Below are positions 1 through 26,312 of a stretch of 64,000 nt of DNA, piece after piece. The stretch lies in sequence record MN648445; one strand, 5' to 3'. How positions within the stretch are numbered: the stretch's first letter is position 1; every line of letters starts with the position of its first letter. A program made the translations under genes and the position numbers. The stretch comes from Escherichia phage FP43. Under the pieces are notes generated by a model, which worked only from the letters and a program-made list of their open reading frames with translations, ran no database searches and was not told the origin of the DNA.

Positions 1-267
1 GCTTTGCTTGATTCAGACGAAACACTTGAATATCCATGTACTGACTCAGTGACTTATTATATTCGTGATGGTAAGCTTTATACCCACTGCCATATGCGTT
101 CTCAGAACTGTGCTGTTGTTATGCAGTTGGATTTTTATCTCCAAGGAAAATTACTTCATTATATCGCTAACGAATGTGGTGTAGAAGTTGGTGATTATAC
201 TCATACCATGGTAAGTGCCCATGTGTTTGAACGTGATTTTGATTATGTTAAAGGATTCCTTGACTAA
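1..267 (+). CDS. 42: dCMP hydroxymethylase, C-terminal fragment (gene runs off the 5' edge of the window)
   Basis: Frame-1 ORF open from base 1; thymidylate-synthase-fold C-terminal motifs (CHMRSQN..., IANECG, SAHVF) paralogous to the td gene in this window; lies upstream of uvsX as in T4. Confidence 0.6.
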   Translation, partial: ALLDSDETLEYPCTDSVTYYIRDGKLYTHCHMRSQNCAVVMQLDFYLQGKLLHYIANECGVEVGDYTHTMVSAHVFERDFDYVKGFLD

Positions 268-1166
268 TGGCTATTTTCCGCGTACCAATCTTAAGTATGC
301 GGTCTTATGAAACTGGACAGTATGCTATCCTTAAGGATGGCAACTTCCAACTTCATTTGCACCGTGCTAATCCAGGTGATGTGATTACATATCCACGTAA
401 TGCATCTGATATTAAAGAATGTGAACGTCTTTTCCCGGAATTTAAGTTTGTTCCATTATGGTATAAAGATAACGCGTATAACACTCGTAAATATTTCTGG
501 TCTGAAAATGAATTTGTGGTTGATTCATTAATTGCTTATTATGATTGTGATTTTCTAATAACAGATATCACTGGATATGACGGCGCTTTTGATGTAGAAT
601 TCAATTTCAATATCACGGCAGACCCTAATAAACCACGTTTTTATATTGACGAATTCTTAAAAACCGATATGTTGTCAGTTAATCGTTCACTTCAAACTAC
701 TGTGTTGAATGAACGTCAAAAAGAAGTGCTGGTTAACGCCGGTGCAGATGTTAATAAGATTATCGTAACGCAGAAAGTTATACGTCCTTCCATCATGCAG
801 CGTCTTGTAGGTGATTTGGCTCCTATTCATCTAGATGGTATTTTTCATCCATTTCGAATTAGTGACCCATGTTATCGTTTTGAACAAGTGGTTGAATGTG
901 CAATTCAATTAGGACAACCGCTTTATATAACCGATCCAAATAATAGCTTTGACAGAAATAAGTATCCTGAAGAAGCGCTGATTCGAATTTTTAAACCAAC
1001 TAAAACTGAGTACTATCAAATTCTTAAAGGACGTCCGAAAATTCAATATTTCGAAAATCCTGAAGAAGTATTCCATCCAGGTCTTGGTGAGTTCATCTAC
1101 TTTAATGCTTTAATTTCTTCACCGTATAATATACCTAAATACGAAGATGTCGTAATCGAGGAATAA
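267..1166 (+). CDS. hypothetical protein at the beta-gt position; possible GT-B glycosyltransferase
   Basis: ATG overlaps upstream stop (TAATG); C-terminal stretch RFEQVVECAIQLGQPLYITD resembles the GT-B donor-binding E-x-x-x-E-x-A-x-x-x-G-x-P motif; no resemblance to T4 beta-gt that I can see. Confidence 0.45.
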   Translation: MAIFRVPILSMRSYETGQYAILKDGNFQLHLHRANPGDVITYPRNASDIKECERLFPEFKFVPLWYKDNAYNTRKYFWSENEFVVDSLIAYYDCDFLITDITGYDGAFDVEFNFNITADPNKPRFYIDEFLKTDMLSVNRSLQTTVLNERQKEVLVNAGADVNKIIVTQKVIRPSIMQRLVGDLAPIHLDGIFHPFRISDPCYRFEQVVECAIQLGQPLYITDPNNSFDRNKYPEEALIRIFKPTKTEYYQILKGRPKIQYFENPEEVFHPGLGEFIYFNALISSPYNIPKYEDVVIEE

Positions 1167-1167
1167 A

Positions 1168-1716
1168 ATGGCTAAAATTATTTTAGTAGACGGCCCGGAT
1201 AATGCCGGTAAAACAACTTTCATTAATGACATAATGGAAATTAGTGAAAGATATGTGAAGATTGATTTCCCTAAACGAACAGTTGATGGACGTTTCGATG
1301 TTAAGTCTCGAAATGAAGTTGGCTGTTTCGAAACGATGTTGAATTATTTAGACCCTACTAAGATTTATCTGTTAGACCGTGGATATATTAGTAACTGGGT
1401 TTATGGACGTATTCGACAAGATGCGGACTCGGTTCTTGACGTTTATGAACAGGACTATGTTCGTCTTTGCCAAAACCATGATGTGTTCACAATTATTTTA
1501 ACACGTAACGAAATGACTGAAAGTTTTGAAGACGACCTTATTACTTTGTCTTCATTCGGTTTTAATACAGTCATTTCACATTTTGAAGAGTTTGCAATTC
1601 ATAACAAAATCCAAACGTATCAATTACTTAATCATGATGGTGCTAACAAAGTTATAGGATTTAATGCAAGCGAACGTAATGGTTTGATTACAGAAATCAT
1701 CAAATGGGCTCGTTAA
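1168..1716 (+). CDS. P-loop nucleotide/nucleoside kinase-like protein (Tmk/dNK-like)
   Basis: Walker A GPDNAGKTT at residues 9-17; LLDRGYISNWVYG about 55 aa downstream resembles the DRY/S motif of thymidylate kinases. Confidence 0.55.
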   Translation: MAKIILVDGPDNAGKTTFINDIMEISERYVKIDFPKRTVDGRFDVKSRNEVGCFETMLNYLDPTKIYLLDRGYISNWVYGRIRQDADSVLDVYEQDYVRLCQNHDVFTIILTRNEMTESFEDDLITLSSFGFNTVISHFEEFAIHNKIQTYQLLNHDGANKVIGFNASERNGLITEIIKWAR

Positions 1717-6903: not shown

Positions 6904-7554
6904 ATGATTTATTACATGCACAAAAACGCACCGTTTAAATATGGTAAATTTCCTAATGCACAATGTTATAATATAACGCCGAATGAAAATAATAACGGAT
7001 ATCATATTGGTGTAATTTTTGTAATTGTTAAAGATAACGAAATCGTTGCCTGGGCAGATTTTAAAGGTACAACGTATGACGTTAATCCAGTTCCGTTCAC
7101 ATATTATAATTTAATGGATTTGGCATACGACTATAATTGGTTTACTCATGATACTCTAGCACATGTTGAAGGCGTAGGATTTGACATCTCTTATTCTAGT
7201 TATTCATTATGTCCTATGAGCCGAGCTCACGGTAAAGATGTATCATATCTTTCAATTCGGAAACGTGTAAACTTCAAACGTAGTACAGAGTATGTTGGTG
7301 GACTCTTTGTTAAAGATAATAAAATAACCCGTATTAGTTATCCTTTAAGTGTAGGTCAAAAAGATGTTGATGTTGATTTAGACTTAACTGAAAATAACAT
7401 TAATCATATTGCTTCTGTATATTTTGATATCGATGAAAAAATTGTAGTGTGTGGATATGAATTACCACCTGAAGAAAAGGCTGAAACAATTGAAGTCGAA
7501 TTAGAAATTTCTGTTGATGACCAAATATTTAATGCATTTATGAATCGAGGTTAA
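6904..7554 (+). CDS. hypothetical protein
   Basis: ORF; ATG at 6904 preferred over upstream GTG 6895. Confidence 0.55.
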   Translation: MIYYMHKNAPFKYGKFPNAQCYNITPNENNNGYHIGVIFVIVKDNEIVAWADFKGTTYDVNPVPFTYYNLMDLAYDYNWFTHDTLAHVEGVGFDISYSSYSLCPMSRAHGKDVSYLSIRKRVNFKRSTEYVGGLFVKDNKITRISYPLSVGQKDVDVDLDLTENNINHIASVYFDIDEKIVVCGYELPPEEKAETIEVELEISVDDQIFNAFMNRG

Positions 7555-7555
7555 A

Positions 7556-7753
7556 ATGACTACTGCAATTTGCACTGGTTCTAAAATTAGTGTTTTTACA
7601 AGTTTTGAAGATTATGAAGTTGTTTCAAAACACCAATACCATATTAGCGTAAAAGCTAATGATGGTGTAATTTGGAATATTCCACACTATGAAGACACTA
7701 CATATGAAGTCACAGATGCGAACGGTGATAAAGCGATCTTTGTGATTGATTAA
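7556..7753 (+). CDS. hypothetical protein
   Basis: 65-aa ORF tightly packed between neighbours. Confidence 0.45.
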   Translation: MTTAICTGSKISVFTSFEDYEVVSKHQYHISVKANDGVIWNIPHYEDTTYEVTDANGDKAIFVID

Positions 7754-7772
7754 ATATACTCAGGAGGTACCT

Positions 7773-8240
7773 ATGGGTATTATTAACACTGCAATAGATT
7801 CAGTTTATGCATATAAGTTTATTCGACTAATGCAAAAACCTTTTACCGAATGGAAAGCGTACGAAGCCAAAATCATCGACGAACGTGGAAGTGTTCTTAA
7901 ACGTCCTTCCACTCCTGAAGAGAAAGCGGCTTATACACCTTTTCATGCTTCAGTTCGTTCAATGAAGCGAATGATGAGTACTGTTCCAGGTCTTAATGGA
8001 ATGGCCTCAATGATGTCTGCCTGGAGTGCCGTAGCATCCCGCTATAACATTACAGAAGAACAACAGAAAGAAATATTTAAAGAACTCCCTTTATTTGAGG
8101 ATATGGTTGCTGGTGATTCAGGTGGCAGCCCTCAAGCTATTGCATCAGGAACAACTACAGGTGCAGTCGTAAATAAAGGTCCAGAACAAATTCCTTCCAA
8201 GAAAAGAAAGCGAATTAAAGTAAATATTAATAAGTTGTGA
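7773..8240 (+). CDS. hypothetical protein
   Basis: ATG 7773 preceded by AGGAGG; Lys/Arg-rich C-terminus. Confidence 0.6.
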   Translation: MGIINTAIDSVYAYKFIRLMQKPFTEWKAYEAKIIDERGSVLKRPSTPEEKAAYTPFHASVRSMKRMMSTVPGLNGMASMMSAWSAVASRYNITEEQQKEIFKELPLFEDMVAGDSGGSPQAIASGTTTGAVVNKGPEQIPSKKRKRIKVNINKL

Positions 8241-8279
8241 TATGATGGCCTTATTAATTTAAGGCCTCTGGAGAATACT

Positions 8280-9302
8280 ATGGCTGAATGGATAGATAAT
8301 GAATTTGCTTATCGTGCGTTTTCTCACCTCCCTCGTTTTAGACAAATCAATAATTCAAGCACATTTAAATTAACATTTCGATGCCCAGTTTGTGGCGACT
8401 CTCAGACAGATGCAATGAAAGCCCGCGGATGGTATTACGGCGGTACTCCAGGTAATGTGCATTGCTATAACTGTCAATACCACAATACAATTTCCGGATA
8501 CTTAAAAGAGTATGATGAAGAGCTTTATCGCGAATATCTAATGGAAGTTCGTAAAGAAAAAGCTAGAATGGAACCGAAGATTGAAAAGGTTCCTGAACAT
8601 AAACCAGAACCGGAGAAAAAGACTATAAATTCTTTGCCGTCTTGTTCTCGTCTGGACAAACTGCCTGAAGAGCATCCTATTGTGAAATATGTTAAGTCTC
8701 GGTGTATTCCTAAAGAATCGTGGAATAGATTATGGTTCACATTAGAATGGCCTAAATTGGTCAACAAGATTCAACCTGGTACGTATAAGAAAGAGATTCC
8801 CGAGCCACGTTTAGTGATTCCTATTTTTAATAAAGATGGGAAGGCCGAGTCATTCCAAGGACGTGCACTTCGTAAAGATGCTCCTCAGAAATATATCACT
8901 ATTAAAGCGTTTGAGTCTGCAACAAAAATTTATGGTGTTGAACGTGTTAAGGAAGGAGACGTCTGGGTAATGGAAGGCCCTATTGATAGTTTATTCATAC
9001 CCAATGCAATCGCTATTACAGGCGGCTCGATAGATTTAGATGTGGTACCATTTAAAGAACGTCGGGTATGGGTAATGGATAATGAACCTAGGCATCCGGA
9101 TACTATAGCTCGCATGAAGCGATTAGTTGATGCAGGCGAACGTGTCATGTTCTGGGATCGAGCTCCATGGAGTTCAAAGGATGTGAATGATATGGTAATG
9201 AAAGAAAATGCAACACCACAAGAAATTTTAGAATATATGAAACAGAATATTTCAAGTGGGTTGCATGCTAAAATGAGATTATCTCGTTATTCGAAGATTT
9301 AA
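8280..9302 (+). CDS. 61: gp61 DNA primase
   Basis: 340 aa; N-terminal Cys4 zinc ribbon (CPVCGD ... CYNCQYH), Toprim-like C-terminal half; matches recalled T4 gp61. Confidence 0.92.
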   Translation: MAEWIDNEFAYRAFSHLPRFRQINNSSTFKLTFRCPVCGDSQTDAMKARGWYYGGTPGNVHCYNCQYHNTISGYLKEYDEELYREYLMEVRKEKARMEPKIEKVPEHKPEPEKKTINSLPSCSRLDKLPEEHPIVKYVKSRCIPKESWNRLWFTLEWPKLVNKIQPGTYKKEIPEPRLVIPIFNKDGKAESFQGRALRKDAPQKYITIKAFESATKIYGVERVKEGDVWVMEGPIDSLFIPNAIAITGGSIDLDVVPFKERRVWVMDNEPRHPDTIARMKRLVDAGERVMFWDRAPWSSKDVNDMVMKENATPQEILEYMKQNISSGLHAKMRLSRYSKI

Positions 9303-19398: not shown

Positions 19399-19824
19399 AT
19401 GGCTTTTAAAGGTTTTGAAGTTGGTAAGAAATATCATATTATCAAAGGTCAAGAAGATAATTTCTTGAGAATTCTTAATACGACTGGTAAACGTCTTAAT
19501 ACTAATCTGCATACTACTTTATTGTCCAAAGATTTTATTGTGGAAGAGATGATTGGTTACGGTGTTTCGGTTATTGCTGTAGAAGCCGTAGGCGATTATG
19601 GCCGAACTATTCATAGTATGCAAGGTGATATTCTGCTTTATGGTGCAGAATTTAAATTCTTTGAAGAAGTTCAGGAACCAGATACAGCTGTCGATTTCAA
19701 AAAAGGCTCTATAGAATTTGTTGATGGTTCGGTGATCGTATCAGGTGATGTGGTCATTACAGTTAAAAGTGAACAAGGGCGTTTGGCTGCAATTGATGCA
19801 CTTCAGAAAATTAAATTTAAATAA
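19399..19824 (+). CDS. hypothetical protein
   Basis: 141-aa ORF followed by terminator. Confidence 0.6.
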   Translation: MAFKGFEVGKKYHIIKGQEDNFLRILNTTGKRLNTNLHTTLLSKDFIVEEMIGYGVSVIAVEAVGDYGRTIHSMQGDILLYGAEFKFFEEVQEPDTAVDFKKGSIEFVDGSVIVSGDVVITVKSEQGRLAAIDALQKIKFK

Positions 19825-19887: not shown

Positions 19888-21705
19888 ATGATTAAAAATG
19901 AAATTAAGGTATTGTCAGATGTAGAACATATTAAGAAACGTAGTGGTATGTATATTGGTTCTTCGGCCAAAGAAGCCCACGAGCGTTTTTTGTTTGGTAA
20001 ATATCAACAAGTTGAATATGTTCCTGGTCTGGTTAAATTAATCGATGAGATTATTGACAACTCGGTTGATGAAGCTATTCGTACATCATTTAAGTTTGCA
20101 AATAAAATTGATGTGCAAATTAAAAATAATCAAGTTTCGGTGGAAGATAACGGACGTGGTATTCCTCAAGGTTTAGTTACCGACCAAACAGGTGAACAAA
20201 TTCCTGGGCCTGTAGCAGCCTGGACTATTCCAAAGGCCGGTGGTAACTTTGGTGATGACTCTGAACGCAAGACTGGTGGTATGAACGGCGTCGGGAGTAG
20301 TTTAACTAATATCTTCTCTACGTTGTTTACAGGCATCACGTCAGATGGCGAAAATGAAATCACTGTTAACTGTTCAAACGGAATGGAAAACAAATCATGG
20401 TCTTCTAAGAAATCTAAAGGTAAAGGCACTAAAGTAATCTTCACTCCTGATTTCACTTCATTTGAAGAGCATAATTTATCTCAAATTTATTTAGATATTA
20501 CTTTAGACCGACTTCAAACATTGGCAGTCGTTTATCCTGATATCACGTTCACATTTAATGGTAAAAAGGTTGATGGTAATTTTAAACGATTTGCTAAACA
20601 ATTTGGTGAAGATAATATCATTCAAGAAAATGATAAAGTCTCTATAGCATTCACAACATCACCAGATGGCTTCCGTCATTTAACTTATGTGAATAACATC
20701 CATACTAAAAATGGTGGACATCATGTTGAATGTGTAATGGACGATATCTGCGAACATCTTTTGCCGGGTATTAAAAAGAAATATAAGGGTATTGAAGTCA
20801 CTAAAGCTCGTGTTAAAGAATGTCTCACAATGTTGATGTTTATTAGAGACATGAGCAACATGCGTTTTGATTCTCAGACTAAAGAACGTTTAACGTCAAC
20901 GTATGGTGATATTCGTAATCATATCCAATTAGATGCTAAGAAAATTGCTCAGGCACTTCTTAAAAATGAAGCCTTGATTATGCCTATTGTTGAAGCAGCA
21001 TTAGCTCGTAAATTGGCGGCAGAAAAGGCTGCAGAAACTAAAGCAGCTAAAAAGGCAACTAAAGCTAAGGTTCATAAGCATATTAAAGCTAACCAATGTG
21101 GTAAAGATGCAGATACGACATTGTTTTTAACAGAAGGTGATTCGGCAATTGGATATCTCATTGATGTTCGTGACCGTGAACTACACGGCGGATTCCCGTT
21201 ACGTGGTAAGGTGATGAATAGCTGGGGTATGTCATATGCTGATATGATGAAGAACAAAGAGCTCTTTGATATCTGTGCTATCACAGGTCTTATTCTTGGT
21301 GAAAAGGCAGAGAATACGAACTATCGTAATATTGCAATTATGACCGATGCCGATCATGACGGCCTTGGAAGTATTTATCCTGCTTTGCTTGCTTTCTTTA
21401 GTAATTGGCCTGAATTGTTTGAACAAGGACGTATTCGCTTTGTTAAAACACCTGTAATTATTGCACAAATTGGCAAAACTCAAAAATGGTTTTATACTGT
21501 AGCTGAGTATGAAGAAGTTAAAGATACACTGCCTAAGCATAGTATTCGATACATCAAGGGATTGGGCTCCCTTGAAAAGTCAGAGTATCGTGAAATGATT
21601 CAGAACCCTGTGTACGACGTAGTTAAACTTCCTGAAAATTGGAAAGAACTCTTTGAAATGCTGATGGGTGATGATTCAGAACTTCGTAAAGAATGGATGT
21701 CCTAA
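19888..21705 (+). CDS. 39: DNA topoisomerase II large subunit (GyrB-like), gp39 and gp60 as one contiguous ORF
   Basis: 605 aa; GHKL ATPase N-terminus and Toprim-like C-terminal part; 605 aa is more than the roughly 516 aa I recall for T4 gp39, so the gp60 portion appears fused. Confidence 0.88.
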   Translation: MIKNEIKVLSDVEHIKKRSGMYIGSSAKEAHERFLFGKYQQVEYVPGLVKLIDEIIDNSVDEAIRTSFKFANKIDVQIKNNQVSVEDNGRGIPQGLVTDQTGEQIPGPVAAWTIPKAGGNFGDDSERKTGGMNGVGSSLTNIFSTLFTGITSDGENEITVNCSNGMENKSWSSKKSKGKGTKVIFTPDFTSFEEHNLSQIYLDITLDRLQTLAVVYPDITFTFNGKKVDGNFKRFAKQFGEDNIIQENDKVSIAFTTSPDGFRHLTYVNNIHTKNGGHHVECVMDDICEHLLPGIKKKYKGIEVTKARVKECLTMLMFIRDMSNMRFDSQTKERLTSTYGDIRNHIQLDAKKIAQALLKNEALIMPIVEAALARKLAAEKAAETKAAKKATKAKVHKHIKANQCGKDADTTLFLTEGDSAIGYLIDVRDRELHGGFPLRGKVMNSWGMSYADMMKNKELFDICAITGLILGEKAENTNYRNIAIMTDADHDGLGSIYPALLAFFSNWPELFEQGRIRFVKTPVIIAQIGKTQKWFYTVAEYEEVKDTLPKHSIRYIKGLGSLEKSEYREMIQNPVYDVVKLPENWKELFEMLMGDDSELRKEWMS

Positions 21706-21727
21706 GCTCCTTCGGGAGCTTCATTTT
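21705..21727 (+). terminator. terminator-like hairpin
   Basis: AGCTCC-TTCG-GGAGCT then TCATTTT. Confidence 0.55.
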
Positions 21728-21747
21728 AATTTTAATAAGGCTTAATT

Positions 21748-22848
21748 ATGAAAGTTATGTTTATCCCATCTCGCGCAGTCCCATTTAACCCAGAACGTGT
21801 ACAAGGTGGTCTTGAAGCAGTACATTTAAATGTATTGAAATATCTTGTGTCCATCGGTGCTGATATTGATTATATCGGCTTTGATAATGACACGTTTGGT
21901 GACTGGAAGGTTAATCATCATCCTGTTGGTCATCTGACTAAATTCAGTCTAGGTATGAGTTATACTATGGCTCGTAAGATTGTTGAACTAGCCGGCATCC
22001 ATGAATACGATTTTGTTGTTACTATGGAACCGACCAAACTAACCGTTCAGGCAATTAAAGACGCAGGTCTCTCTAAAGTTCATAAGAATTTTATGGCAAC
22101 ACCATTTGAACCGGTATCTCGTGGCATTGTTCAAATTTGGGACCAGACTATTCAAATTCATAAGAACGGTGGTAAGAGTTATGCTCCTACTAAAGCCTTC
22201 CGTGAATTTGAACGCAAATATTGTTATATGACTTCAGGTCTGACTGACAAAATTGATTATGATTATTGGCGAGCAAATCCGTTGTTTGAAGCCGAAGATT
22301 ATCCGGTTATTTGTTTGAATGAGAAACCTGAAGTTCTTCCGGCGACTGATCTGATTATTAGTGCACAACGTTATGACACTAAAATGCGTCGTACTGATGT
22401 TGCTCTTGAAGCGATTAAAGCACTAGGCGAAAATGGTGCAGGATACTGTCCTAGTAAATGGGCACCACCAGCTAAATATCCTGTTATTATTGATGCTCCA
22501 CACAGTGAAATCATGGAACGTCTTAAAACAGCTAAAGCACTTATCAATACGTGTCCTGACACGGGTACGGTAGAGAATAGTTCTATTGAAGCCATCTCTA
22601 AAGGTGTCCCTGTGATTCAGTTAGTTTTTAAGGATTATCCGCACGCGACATTCGAATATGACCCAGATACTGTGCGTGTAGAAATTGATTCCTCTACTCC
22701 TAAGAAAGAAGTAGTTGCGCTTTACACAAAAGCTGTATTAGAATTCACTGACACATACGAAGCTCGAGTTAAACGTGCTGAAGCAGTATGGAAGAAGTAT
22801 AACCGAGATGCAGTTGTTGCGATGTGGGATAAAATCTTCACAGCGTAA
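21748..22848 (+). CDS. putative GT-B fold glycosyltransferase
   Basis: 366 aa; C-terminal TGTVENSSIEAISKGVPVIQ matches the GT-B donor-binding E-x7-E / EA-x-x-x-G-x-PVI motif; lies between 39 and rIIA, not at a T4 glucosyltransferase locus. Confidence 0.5.
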   Translation: MKVMFIPSRAVPFNPERVQGGLEAVHLNVLKYLVSIGADIDYIGFDNDTFGDWKVNHHPVGHLTKFSLGMSYTMARKIVELAGIHEYDFVVTMEPTKLTVQAIKDAGLSKVHKNFMATPFEPVSRGIVQIWDQTIQIHKNGGKSYAPTKAFREFERKYCYMTSGLTDKIDYDYWRANPLFEAEDYPVICLNEKPEVLPATDLIISAQRYDTKMRRTDVALEAIKALGENGAGYCPSKWAPPAKYPVIIDAPHSEIMERLKTAKALINTCPDTGTVENSSIEAISKGVPVIQLVFKDYPHATFEYDPDTVRVEIDSSTPKKEVVALYTKAVLEFTDTYEARVKRAEAVWKKYNRDAVVAMWDKIFTA

Positions 22849-22940
22849 ATCCTGAATCGCCTGAGGCACTATTACACATAAGATGATAGATTATATGGTC
22901 TTTAGTAATAGTGCCCTAGGAATCTACTGAAGAGAATATT

Positions 22941-23141
22941 ATGAGAACATATAACGTGGACTTGGAACTTTTTGATAAAGCGGTGCTCCGGGAATTCCGG
23001 CTTATCCAAAGATTTTTTGATATCGAGTCAGCAGAGTCCTTTAAAGAACGCTTTAAAGAAATTCGATATAAAATACAAACCGATACAGCTACTAAAGAAG
23101 AACTTCTTGAAGTAGCAGAAATTTTTAAACGTAACTTGTGA
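22941..23141 (+). CDS. small hypothetical protein (rIIA.1 position)
   Basis: 66-aa ORF immediately upstream of rIIA. Confidence 0.45.
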   Translation: MRTYNVDLELFDKAVLREFRLIQRFFDIESAESFKERFKEIRYKIQTDTATKEELLEVAEIFKRNL

Positions 23142-23153
23142 TGAGAGAAAAAT

Positions 23154-25367
23154 ATGATTATTGAAACGGCTAAAGAAACGATTATTGGTTCAGGCGGTAA
23201 GAGCACAGCATTTACTATTCAAGGCAATAGCAAAGTTTATAAGATTTTGTCTAATGACCTTTATACAAACAAAGAATTGGCTTGTGTACGTGAATTAATC
23301 ACAAACTGTATCGATGGACAAATTCTTAATGGTTGCACTGATAAGTTTATTGTTCAGGCTCCAGGTCGTTTAGACCCACGTTTTGTAGTTCGAGACTTTG
23401 GTCCTGGTATGAGTGATTTCACCATTCGAGGTAATGACGAAGAGCCAGGAATCTATAACTCATATTTTGCTTCAACTAAAACATCGAGTAACGATTTCAT
23501 TGGTGGATTCGGACTCGGCTCTAAAGCTCCACTAGCATATACCGACACATTTAACCTTACGTCTTATCACAACGGCGAAGTTCGTGGTTATGTAATTTAT
23601 CAAGATGACACAGGTCCACAGATTAAGCCGACCTTTGTAGATAAGATGGGTCCTGATGACCGTACGGGTGTAGAAGTAGTTGTACCGGTTAACCCGGAAG
23701 ATTTTGAAAAGTTTGCATCCGAAATTGCATATGTTATGCGTCCTCTAGGTGACATTGCAGAAGTTCGTGGTGTTAAAGATATCAAATACTTTCCTGAATT
23801 TGATGATGTATATTTGGCCAAGGAAGCTCCATGGGGTGAACGCGGTAATATCATGGCTGTTTATGGCGGTATTGTATATCCAATCGGAAGTGTTATTAAA
23901 GAACAAACGTGGATGATGACGCGATGCACTACAGCTTATATTAAATTCCCTATGGGTGAACTAGATGTAGCTCCGTCTCGTGAAGCATTGTCATTTGATA
24001 AACGTACAGTAGCAAATATCCATAAACGCGTTGCAGAAATCGATGCTAAATTGTTCGCTGAAGATTCTAAGAAATGGATTGATTGTAAATACCCACGTCA
24101 TGTGTTCCGTGAAATTGATTCTCTTGGCTATACCGCTCGTAAATACATGGAAAAGGCCGGGTCTAATATTGAATCACTGAAATACTCTAAAGAACAACTA
24201 ACTTATTCTGAGTTGTACAAACGTTTTAAAATGGGGCCTGAGTGGTGTAATCTTGGTGTCGTATACGATATCGTTGAATCCCCTCGTCTTCGTCGTATTC
24301 GTGAAAGCGGCAGCTCAACGGCAACCATTTCAATTAACAGTCTGATTGGCATTAACATTAAAAATGTTGAAATTGTTATTGACGACGTTAAGGGACGCGT
24401 TCCATTAATGCGAGCTCTTAATTCAATTGAAATGTCTAAAGACGAGGTTAAATTAACCGGTAAAGTTCCACGCGGTTTTGGTAAAAGCGTACTATTCGTT
24501 GACCCTACAGACGAAGATGCAATGAAACTTCTGGAACGCCTTAAAGTTATCTTTGATGGCGACAACATTAACATGTACAAGACTTCAGAGCTTTTACAAA
24601 TCGTTAAGCCATGGATTGAAGTCAGGAAACGGACTAATGAGCCTCGTCCTAAATCGCCAAGTGCTCATCGATTCTTTAAGAATGAAAACGATGTTTGGGT
24701 ATCAGAAGACCTCTTTATTCCGGCAAGTGAAGCAGATGAAATCCAAGGTTATGCTATAGTTCGTAATCGTTCTAATGCTGAATGTCTTGACGCAGATAAA
24801 GGTTGGTTGAACTATGACTCCAATTTCTTAACCCGTATTGCTGATTTGTCAGGTATTAAAGAGTTCACTGTAGTTCGTCCACAGATTGCTAAGAAAGTTC
24901 GTAAACTTGGTGAAGTAGAATGCTTGTTCGAAAAATCAATTAATGACTATATTACGCTAATCGATAAAGTGGATTATGATGAGTATGTATCACCAAGTCG
25001 TAGAGCACAGCCTTATTTGAATCATATTACTCGTAATGAAGAGCTTAACTTCCTTAGTAAGTATTTTAGCTCTAAGAACAAAGAAATCAGTAAAGACTTT
25101 GCAAAACTCTCAACAGTAAATAATCGTTGGGGATGGAATCGATTCGCAGGTGCTACTAATACAGACCTGAATAAGAAGTTAGAACTGTGTGCTAAAATTT
25201 TCGATAAGCTTAAAGATAATGCTTACGATAATGATGATAAAATGGTTATTGAATTCGAAACCAATTATCATATTGTGTCAGACTACATGGGACGACGTGG
25301 TACTCTTTCTAAAGAACAAGTCGCTCAAATCGTTAAATTCATGAAGGCTGTGGAAGCAGCCAAATAA
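23154..25367 (+). CDS. rIIA: rIIA protein
   Basis: 737 aa; N-terminal GHKL-type ATPase-like motifs; followed by rIIB. Confidence 0.85.
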   Translation: MIIETAKETIIGSGGKSTAFTIQGNSKVYKILSNDLYTNKELACVRELITNCIDGQILNGCTDKFIVQAPGRLDPRFVVRDFGPGMSDFTIRGNDEEPGIYNSYFASTKTSSNDFIGGFGLGSKAPLAYTDTFNLTSYHNGEVRGYVIYQDDTGPQIKPTFVDKMGPDDRTGVEVVVPVNPEDFEKFASEIAYVMRPLGDIAEVRGVKDIKYFPEFDDVYLAKEAPWGERGNIMAVYGGIVYPIGSVIKEQTWMMTRCTTAYIKFPMGELDVAPSREALSFDKRTVANIHKRVAEIDAKLFAEDSKKWIDCKYPRHVFREIDSLGYTARKYMEKAGSNIESLKYSKEQLTYSELYKRFKMGPEWCNLGVVYDIVESPRLRRIRESGSSTATISINSLIGINIKNVEIVIDDVKGRVPLMRALNSIEMSKDEVKLTGKVPRGFGKSVLFVDPTDEDAMKLLERLKVIFDGDNINMYKTSELLQIVKPWIEVRKRTNEPRPKSPSAHRFFKNENDVWVSEDLFIPASEADEIQGYAIVRNRSNAECLDADKGWLNYDSNFLTRIADLSGIKEFTVVRPQIAKKVRKLGEVECLFEKSINDYITLIDKVDYDEYVSPSRRAQPYLNHITRNEELNFLSKYFSSKNKEISKDFAKLSTVNNRWGWNRFAGATNTDLNKKLELCAKIFDKLKDNAYDNDDKMVIEFETNYHIVSDYMGRRGTLSKEQVAQIVKFMKAVEAAK

Positions 25368-25376
25368 GGAAACATT

Positions 25377-26312
25377 ATGTACAATATTAAATGCTTGTCT
25401 CAAGAAGAACAGTTAGAAGCTTACGGTCTGGTTAAATCAGGCCAATGGACCCGTCGGGAAATTGCTGATTACTTCAATATTTCCACTGACACTCTTCGTA
25501 AGATTGTTAAGAATTTTAAAGCTGAAGAGAAAGCCGCTGAATTTGAAGACGAAGAACAAGTCCAAGAAAATAATGAACCTATTATTACAGGTCATCGTCC
25601 AGAAATCGTATGGAACGCATCATCTAAATTTATTTCAATCATTGAAGGACGCGTAGCATACAATGCGACCCCATCAAGTCATGCAAATTTTGAAGAAATT
25701 AAAGCTAATTTGGTCGCAGGAAACCTTAGTAAAGCTGTCGAACTTATTAACATCAAGAAAGCTATTACTAAGTTTGTTGACGGTAATGTTACTATTGAAG
25801 GTGGTAGTTTATTTTATCAAGGTATAGAAATTCGTTCAGGACTGGTTAATCGTATTATTGATTCTATGGAAAAAGGCGAAGACTTTAAATTCTATCTGCC
25901 GTTCCTTGAAAACCTGTTAGAAAACCCAAGCGAAAAAGCTGTACAACGTTTATTCGACTTCTTGGTTGCAAACGATATTGAAATCACTGAAGATGGGCAT
26001 TTTTATGCATGGAAAGTAGTTCGTAAAGACTATTTAGACTGCTATAGTGGTACATTTGATAACTCCCCAGGTAAAGTTGTTTCAATGCCTCGTACTCGAG
26101 TTAACGACGATGATACTCAAACCTGTTCTCGCGGTCTCCATGTTTGTGCTAAATCTTATATTCGCCACTTTGGTTCAAGCTCAGATAAAGTTGTTAAGGT
26201 TAAAGTTCATCCACGTGATGTTGTATCCATCCCAGTTGACTATGGTGATGCTAAGATGCGTACTTGTCGTTATGAAGTAATTTCAGACGTTACTGAATTA
26301 TTTGCAGAATAA
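25377..26312 (+). CDS. rIIB: rIIB protein
   Basis: 311 aa; synteny after rIIA; length close to the roughly 312 aa I recall for T4 rIIB. Confidence 0.8.
   Translation: MYNIKCLSQEEQLEAYGLVKSGQWTRREIADYFNISTDTLRKIVKNFKAEEKAAEFEDEEQVQENNEPIITGHRPEIVWNASSKFISIIEGRVAYNATPSSHANFEEIKANLVAGNLSKAVELINIKKAITKFVDGNVTIEGGSLFYQGIEIRSGLVNRIIDSMEKGEDFKFYLPFLENLLENPSEKAVQRLFDFLVANDIEITEDGHFYAWKVVRKDYLDCYSGTFDNSPGKVVSMPRTRVNDDDTQTCSRGLHVCAKSYIRHFGSSSDKVVKVKVHPRDVVSIPVDYGDAKMRTCRYEVISDVTELFAE

Follow-up and report, generated by a model that had tools for sequence, protein, structure and literature searches.

A GT-B glycosyltransferase gene at the 39-rIIA junction of a Mosigvirus genome and its probable role as a second DNA arabinosyltransferase

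The 39-rIIA junction and the modification genes

We analysed a 64,000-nt stretch of Escherichia phage FP43 DNA (MN648445), hereafter the window. The original prediction had called a 366-aa ORF downstream of the topoisomerase gene, and its ATG-to-TAA coordinates on the + strand proved exact (Table 1). Both C-terminal strings quoted for it were present in the translation: CPDTGTVENSSIEAISKGVPVIQ at residues 269-291 and EYDPDTV at residues 303-309.

Table 1. Features of the window discussed in the text
Feature	Coordinates	Strand	Description
ThyA homologue C-terminus, 88 aa (RB69 gp48 equivalent)	1..267	+	5hodCMP-synthase signature
299-aa GT-B protein (RB69 gp46:47 orthologue)	267..1166	+	Proposed first (alpha) arabinosyltransferase on 5-hydroxycytosine
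182-aa P-loop nucleotide-kinase-like protein (RB69 gp45 equivalent)	1168..1716	+	Conserved modification cluster
Fused topoisomerase II large subunit (60plus39), 605 aa	19888..21705		Upstream neighbour of 366-aa ORF
GC-rich hairpin AAGCTCC-TTCG-GGAGCTT, then T-rich tract	21704..21721	+	Putative terminator (terminator scan)
Shine-Dalgarno-like AAGG	21737..21740	+	7 nt 5' of ATG; read directly from sequence
366-aa ORF, ATG to TAA	21748..22848	+	GT-B glycosyltransferase, orthologue of RB69 ORF003c/gp3 and HY126 glycosyltransferase
rIIA.1	22941..23141		Downstream of 366-aa ORF; Pfam T4_RIIA1, E 2e-30
rIIA	23154..25367		Downstream of rIIA.1
rIIB	25377..26312		Downstream of rIIA

The putative terminator overlaps the topoisomerase stop codon and lies 26 nt upstream of the 366-aa ORF start. 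RNA folding gave it -10.5 kcal/mol in the centroid structure, and the equivalent site in phage SA79RD is annotated as a rho-independent terminator. A sigma-70 promoter scan around the ORF returned 5 sites, against 5.7 expected from shuffled sequence, and 0 matches in the 42-nt spacer upstream of the ORF. Because such sites were no commoner than in shuffled sequence, no promoter is claimed for the gene. Covariation analysis of a stem-loop downstream of the ORF was uninformative because the 4 sequences were nearly identical.

The 5.5-kb stretch around the ORF matched many RB69-like phages (Mosigvirus) at 98-98.6% identity; the window is a Mosigvirus genome. RB69 ORF003c/gp3 (NP_861693.1) has the same length as the 366-aa protein and is 99.5% identical to it (2 substitutions). 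The two ORFs differ at 23 nucleotides, and the codon differences were 21 synonymous and 2 nonsynonymous; relative to Bas47 they were 49 synonymous and 8 nonsynonymous. These splits therefore point to an expressed gene under purifying selection. In phage vB_EcoM_SA79RD, the corresponding ORF is nucleotide-identical to 21748..22848. The order 60plus39 - ORF003c - rIIA.1 - rIIA is common to the window, RB69, SA79RD and Bas47, and PHROG 8302 (function not assigned) matched the 366-aa protein over its full length (E 9e-223). On identity and synteny, the protein is assigned to the RB69 ORF003c/gp3 - HY126 glycosyltransferase family.

The T4 junction holds rIIA.1, 60, 60.1 and a mobA remnant, in agreement with the earlier statement that T4 carries only small ORFs here. 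The locus had also been called non-canonical; this holds relative to T4, but the position is the standard one in ~155 Mosigvirus records. Novelty of the gene was rejected. Its designation as a putative arabinosyltransferase goes back to 2018, and for Bas47 (MZ501047) GenBank describes the same-locus gene bas47_0105 as 'putative hmC-arabinosyltransferase'. Publications already cover the gene together with its fold, locus and proposed role, and a structure has been deposited; the gene is not new. Horizontal acquisition was also considered on base composition. The GC content of the ORF was 40.1% and that of the window 37.6%, a gap too small to lend support to acquisition.

The modification cluster at the start of the window lies ~20 kb away from the 366-aa ORF in Mosigvirus. 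In an alignment of ThyA homologues with E. coli ThyA as the third reference, the window and DLP1 proteins read MRSQNCAVVMQLD and T4 gp42 reads MRSNDVVFGFRND. The window protein has N at the position of ThyA D169 and D at that of ThyA N177, as in DLP1 and unlike T4 gp42. N in place of D169 is a published predictor of 5hodCMP synthases (PMC13326640), and the predicted acceptor base is therefore 5-hydroxycytosine, not hmC.

The 299-aa protein was 99% identical to RB69 ORF047c+046c. Its AF2 model had a pLDDT of 94.8, and the top Foldseek match was the retaining GT MshA (3c4q; E 6e-7), which is also the structural top match of RB69 gp46:47 (PMC13326640). The place of beta-gt in T4, adjoining the gene 42 homologue, is taken here by the 267..1166 gene. 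The 182-aa protein matched PHROG 761 (thymidylate kinase, E 6e-45), and in DLP1 the equivalent kinase likewise has the first transferase on one side and the gp3-type transferases on the other. The synthase C-terminus, first GT and kinase co-occur with the 366-aa gene in the window. The RB69 gp50-55 equivalents are expected upstream of position 1; these sugar-activation genes are present in near-identical genomes (PMC13326640).

Fold and conservation of the 366-aa protein

A PDB sequence search with the 366-aa protein returned one chain, 9IQZ/9IR0, with 98% identity over the full length (E 2.8e-249). The 6 substitutions between them are E16D, N56T, Y160H, G164A, A231V and S315F, all outside the columns that are invariant in the family. 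The two entries, both released on 2025-07-16, are titled 'phage HY126 glycosyltransferase' (9IQZ, apo) and the same 'with UDP' (9IR0); in the deposition, the chain carries the name 'Glycosyltransferase subfamily 4-like N-terminal domain-containing protein'.

An AF2 model of the 366-aa protein was built from a 6-sequence alignment and had a moderate pLDDT of 61. The C-terminal domain reached ~80, and the N-terminal domain and residues 115-188 were poor. Because the model was mediocre, it was used for Foldseek and not for residue-level active-site claims. Strand and helix elements alternate in both of its halves. Foldseek ranked 9ir0/9iqz first (E ~1e-51, TM 0.7), followed by the GT4-type GT-B enzymes PimA 2gej (4.6e-8), WaaG, BshA, tll1591, SenB, LmbT and GlgM, and gave a probability of 1.00 to >100 GT-B chains. 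The predicted GT-B fold was borne out by these matches and by the crystallisation of the 98%-identical protein with UDP. A fold other than GT-B had been named as the outcome that would overturn the prediction; the modelled structure matched GT-B and left it standing. On the model and the solved structure of the near-identical protein, the 366-aa protein has a GT-B fold with two Rossmann-like alpha/beta domains, and it is GT4-like by structure only.

A Pfam scan of the 366-aa and 299-aa ORFs matched no family at E<=1, so that membership in Glycos_transf_1 was not demonstrable by sequence. When a 10-member family profile was searched against all PDB sequences, no GT4 chain was found at E<=10 and the HY126 chain was the sole true match; the other two matches, a ThiJ/PfpI protein (E 0.09) and Kex1 (E 1.1), were rejected as noise. 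By sequence profile, the 366-aa protein falls outside CAZy GT4, Glycos_transf_1 (PF00534) and Glyco_trans_4.

Across 10 members with identity down to 35%, the invariant residues were N267, T268, C269, G273, T274, E276, S279, E281, A282, I283, G286, P288, V289, Q291, L292, H299, A300, T301, E303, D305, P306 and T308. In this alignment, conservation within the family is highest in the C-terminal block quoted in the original prediction. We propose that its invariant donor-site block (residues 267-292) is a putative nucleotide-sugar binding element of the C-terminal domain. In the sequence alignment, the conserved glutamates E276 and E281 form E-x4-E within TGTVENSSIEAISKG, compared with the canonical E-x7-E of GT4, and one or both may correspond to the GT4 pair.

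The family comprised 5 clusters among 5.8 billion proteins. An exhaustive HMMER search of 1.84 billion representatives gave 12 matches, the two weakest at E ~1e-4; with so few matches, no bridge to bacterial GTs was obtained. Judged by these searches, the family is tiny and isolated in sequence space.

Phyletic distribution and proposed role

Distribution of the family was determined by tblastn with the 366-aa protein at E<=1e-5, which matched 211 records. Of these, 155 had at least 95% identity and were Mosigvirus-type with one copy each; the other 56, all below 60% identity, comprised 55 Acinetobacter records and 1 Tegunavirus record. Among the matches listed, the Acinetobacter records had two family copies each. 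Tequatrovirus records numbered 0 among the 211 matches at this threshold. The first-GT (299-aa) family was found in 348 phage records, with hosts or groups including Escherichia, Klebsiella, Serratia, Yersinia, Proteus, Edwardsiella, Shewanella (Thanatos), Acinetobacter and Dhakavirus. This first transferase was present in all arabinosylating T4-like phages found, and the 366-aa family was confined to phages with reported di-arabinosylation, which had one copy, or tri-arabinosylation, which had two.

Arabinose was found in RB69 DNA by Thomas et al. 2018, who proposed ORF003c as a candidate arabinosyltransferase from HHpred and Phyre2 results (GT-B), with homologues given for JS09, Shf125875, Acj61 and Acj9 (PMC6024577). 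Arabinofuranose is ether-bonded to 5-hydroxycytosine in RB69-type DNA, and Lee et al. (NAR 2026) reported RB69 cytosines to be beta-D-Araf-(1-3)-alpha-D-Araf-5-hydroxy-dC, with 5hodCMP made by the ThyA homologue gp48, gp46:47 proposed as the first transferase and gp3 labelled 'beta-arabinosyltransferase 2' (PMC13326640). DNA is mono-arabinosylated in Thanatos, which has a single ara-GT, di-arabinosylated in RB69, NP, Bas46 and Bas47, and tri-arabinosylated in DLP3 (PMC13326640, PMC13390438, PMC12923530); the double arabinosylation of Bas46 and Bas47 is reported in PMC12923530. Family copy numbers of 0, 1 and 2 parallel mono-, di- and tri-arabinosylation. The 366-aa family is absent from Dhakavirus (JS98), Klebsiella Marfa-like, Yersinia TG1, Proteus and Serratia LC53-type phages, whose DNA would on this pattern be mono-arabinosylated only, barring an unrelated extending enzyme.

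The original prediction suggested hmC as the glycosylated base, with another substrate as the alternative. Both the N-for-D169 signature and the chemistry of RB69/NP DNA replace it with 5-hydroxycytosine, a useful correction, and glucose was rejected as the sugar in favour of arabinose (RB69-type DNA, PMC13326640). The idea of two transferases acting stepwise fared better: the 267..1166 product is also GT-B, and stepwise action has been proposed (PMC13326640, PMC13390438), but the substrate suggested, hmC, had to be given up.

We consider it very probable that the 366-aa protein is a second DNA arabinosyltransferase, which would extend alpha-Araf-5-hydroxycytosine with UDP-Araf to the di-arabinosyl form. 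Support from the present analysis lies in the orthology, fold and synteny of the protein, in purifying selection on its gene and in the agreement between phyletic pattern and sugar number. We infer that the 366-aa protein makes the second addition alone, and likewise the linkage that it forms. In the proposed pathway, the ThyA homologue would make 5-hydroxy-dCMP, which would be phosphorylated and then incorporated by replication. The 299-aa transferase would attach alpha-Araf to the 5-hydroxyl. The 366-aa GT-B enzyme, predicted to be soluble, would bind UDP-Araf in its C-terminal domain and place the second Araf on O3 of the DNA-bound first sugar, the linkage reported for RB69 being beta-(1-3). 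The product would be the di-arabinosylated cytosines typical of Mosigvirus DNA, and the extra sugar would thicken the DNA shield against restriction, CRISPR and glycosylase defences.

The 2018 proposal for ORF003c corresponds to a different role, in which the 366-aa protein is the primary transferase and places the first arabinose directly onto the modified cytosine. Thomas et al. detected no other GT in RB69 (PMC6024577), because a sequencing error had split the 46/47 gene. However, the arabinosylating phages of Shewanella, Serratia, Klebsiella and Proteus and of Dhakavirus lack the 366-aa family and keep the 299-aa GT beside the ThyA homologue, and the GT-B assignment of the 299-aa protein is a confident one. 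The DLP3 homologues gp76 and gp77 also argue for extension: together with UDP-Araf in vitro they converted RB69 DNA to the tri-arabinosyl form, and they had no activity on bare 5hoC DNA (PMC13326640). A primary transferase is therefore regarded as improbable.

The same DLP3 pair bears on whether the 366-aa protein works only when paired with another transferase, to which it would lend scaffolding or specificity, with no stand-alone catalysis. Such a role would agree with the finding that gp76 and gp77 are each inactive alone and active only together (PMC13326640). Mosigviruses, however, have a single family copy, the donor-site block TGTVEN-S-EAIS-G-PV is invariant, and the HY126 protein was crystallised with UDP; these three features fit a catalytically competent 366-aa enzyme, and we give the partner role very little credence.

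The DLP1 operon has the order A5P isomerase - kinase/pyrophosphorylase - HAD - ThyA homologue - first GT - kinase - GT - GT, and its two paralogues of the 366-aa protein have 44% and 41% identity to it. Because these homologues lie inside the operon, the family is tied to the DNA-modification pathway by context. A non-DNA acceptor, e.g., a host envelope lipid, an LPS intermediate or a phage protein, would accord with the top non-phage Foldseek matches (PimA and WaaG, which are lipid/LPS glycosyltransferases) and with the distance of the gene from the modification cluster in Mosigvirus. Against this, resemblance to GT-B structures is a poor guide to the acceptor, the Acinetobacter-phage homologues lie inside a DNA-arabinosylation operon, the DLP3 homologues' products modify DNA in vitro, and family copy number tracks the extra sugars on DNA. 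An acceptor other than DNA is thus highly unlikely, and addition of the second arabinose to DNA remains our preferred role for the 366-aa protein.

GT4 enzymes, the closest structural relatives, are retaining. The second sugar is opposite to the first in anomeric configuration, which requires inversion by one of the two phage enzymes. The 366-aa enzyme is credited with the beta-(1-3) bond and the first transferase with an alpha bond, with UDP-Araf as donor in both cases. The GT4-like 366-aa scaffold may itself invert, or may use a differently configured donor, to make the beta-(1-3) bond; if so, its mechanism would be an unusual one for clan GT-B. Separately, the 39/rIIA locus, distant from the operon in which the Acinetobacter-phage homologues lie, may mark a recently transferred 'sugar-extension' module upgrading mono- to di-arabinosylation. 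Both readings are regarded as unlikely.

No report of direct activity of RB69 gp3 or its Mosigvirus orthologues was found in the literature covered, which did not include He et al. 2026 and Mahler et al. 2025, the likeliest sources; PMC13326640 itself terms the role 'proposed'. Bas46 lacking the arabinosyltransferase Aat is reported to become sensitive to a plasmid-borne defence (PMC13216743, citing Mahler et al. 2025); this Aat may be the orthologue of the 366-aa ORF.

Among phage DNA hypermodifications, arabinosylated 5-hydroxycytosine has been clarified recently. Many restriction enzymes, type I CRISPR-Cas and the Brig1 glycosylase are blocked by it, and arabinose number alters which defences a phage evades. 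The 366-aa gene is the proposed determinant of the step from one to two sugars in Mosigvirus. It is relevant to the choice and engineering of therapeutic T4-like phages and to sequencing or cutting their DNA.

Comparison with known systems

RB69 ORF003c/gp3 and the 366-aa ORF are one gene in two sister phages, with essentially no difference between them, and the HY126 glycosyltransferase differs by its six substitutions only. DLP3 gp77/gp76 (DLP1 equivalents ADLP1_075/074) belong to the same family and add further arabinoses to DNA. In DLP3 the genes form a tandem duplicate inside the modification operon, are associated with tri-arabinosylation and act as a pair, whereas the window has one copy, moved to the 39-rIIA junction and associated with di-arabinosylation.

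PimA (2GEJ), WaaG (2IV7/8B5S) and BshA (3MBO) share with the 366-aa protein the two-Rossmann GT-B architecture and a putative C-terminal nucleotide-sugar block; however, identity to them is 10-14%, and the proposed acceptor of the 366-aa enzyme is DNA. The alpha- and beta-glucosyltransferases of T4 are also phage enzymes with a GT-B fold, and glycosylate a hydroxylated cytosine of duplex DNA after its replication. By sequence comparison, the 366-aa protein lies outside both of these families. The T4 enzymes add glucose to 5-hydroxymethylcytosine, whereas Mosigvirus DNA carries arabinofuranose on 5-hydroxycytosine, and the T4 enzymes modify the base itself, whereas the 366-aa enzyme is proposed to extend a sugar.

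The two transferase families and their relatives

The two GT-B glycosyltransferases encoded in the window, the first of 299 aa (267..1166, + strand; RB69 gp46:47 orthologue) and the second of 366 aa (21748..22848, + strand; RB69 ORF003c/gp3 orthologue; hereafter the ORF), differed sharply in the breadth of their families. Clustering at 90% identity divided the first family into at least 137 groups, and many of its members are metagenomic variants 340-380 aa long. The second comprised 5 clusters, and a set of 1.84 billion proteins contained 12 of its representatives at the 50% identity level. Of the tblastn matches to the second transferase below 60% identity, one was in a record named 'Tegunavirus...'.

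Acinetobacter phage DLP1 carries two tandem paralogues of the ORF (7001..9296), 373 and 372 aa long, which share 58% identity. They are located directly 3′ of a kinase-like gene, inside the arabinosylation operon. Their labels are 'putative DNA alpha-glucosyltransferase' for one and 'hypothetical protein' for its neighbour.

Alignment of the thymidylate-synthase homologue at the start of the window with T4 gp42 and E. coli ThyA revealed MRSQNCAVVMQLD in the former versus MRSNDVVFGFRND in T4 gp42. The homologue has N at the position of ThyA D169 and D at that of N177. According to published work, this signature distinguishes 5-hydroxy-dCMP synthases from dCMP hydroxymethylases. Many GenBank records still label this gene 'dCMP hydroxymethylase' or 'thymidylate synthase'.

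Features of the window outside the two transferase genes
Feature	Position	Strand	Location or basis
Thymidylate-synthase homologue, C-terminus	1..267	+	sequence alignment with T4 gp42 and E. coli ThyA
141-aa ORF, RB69ORF005c equivalent	19399..19824	+	between 39.2 and the topoisomerase gene
Topoisomerase II large subunit, 605 aa, single gene (60plus39)	19888..21705	+	
GC-rich tetraloop hairpin (TTCG loop), then T-rich tract	21704..21721	+	terminator scan; SA79RD annotation
Imperfect stem-loop	22860..22920	+	spacer 3′ of the ORF, before rIIA.1; RNA folding versus shuffles

RNA structures on either side of the ORF

The upstream hairpin overlaps the topoisomerase stop codon, and the matching site in phage SA79RD is annotated as a rho-independent terminator. 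The ORF starts just 26 nt 3′ of this hairpin and no promoter was detectable between them, so the ORF is probably expressed by read-through. The hairpin may set the level of the ORF relative to the topoisomerase gene.

The downstream stem-loop combines an inner helix with an 11-bp core (GGCACTATTAC/GTAATAGTGCC). It was strong (-28.5 kcal/mol; z = -4.2 versus shuffles), and none of 200 shuffles was equally stable. No T-run was found 3′ of it. Its sequence is kept in RB69, Bas47 and SA79RD; as the window and these three phages hardly differ here, their comparison yielded no covariation. Possible roles for the stem-loop are in RNA processing, in RNA stability or in binding a protein. In T4, the matching spacer instead has an early-promoter-like GTTTAC...TATAAT.

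The 39-rIIA region compared with T4

RB69 has the same single 60plus39 gene as the window. In T4, by contrast, the subunit is split between genes 39 and 60, with a 50-nt translational bypass, 60.1 and a mobA remnant, all of which the window lacks. The place of the 141-aa ORF, for which a Pfam scan returned no significant match, is occupied in T4 by 39.1.

In a phage-collection search with a 5.48-kb query (19888..25367, topoisomerase gene through rIIA), phage p000v matched as two pieces across 6.28 kb, and the extra ~0.8 kb holds an annotated homing endonuclease. Mosigvirus thus appears to share with T4 an insertion hotspot at the junction between the topoisomerase gene and rIIA, where the ORF lies.
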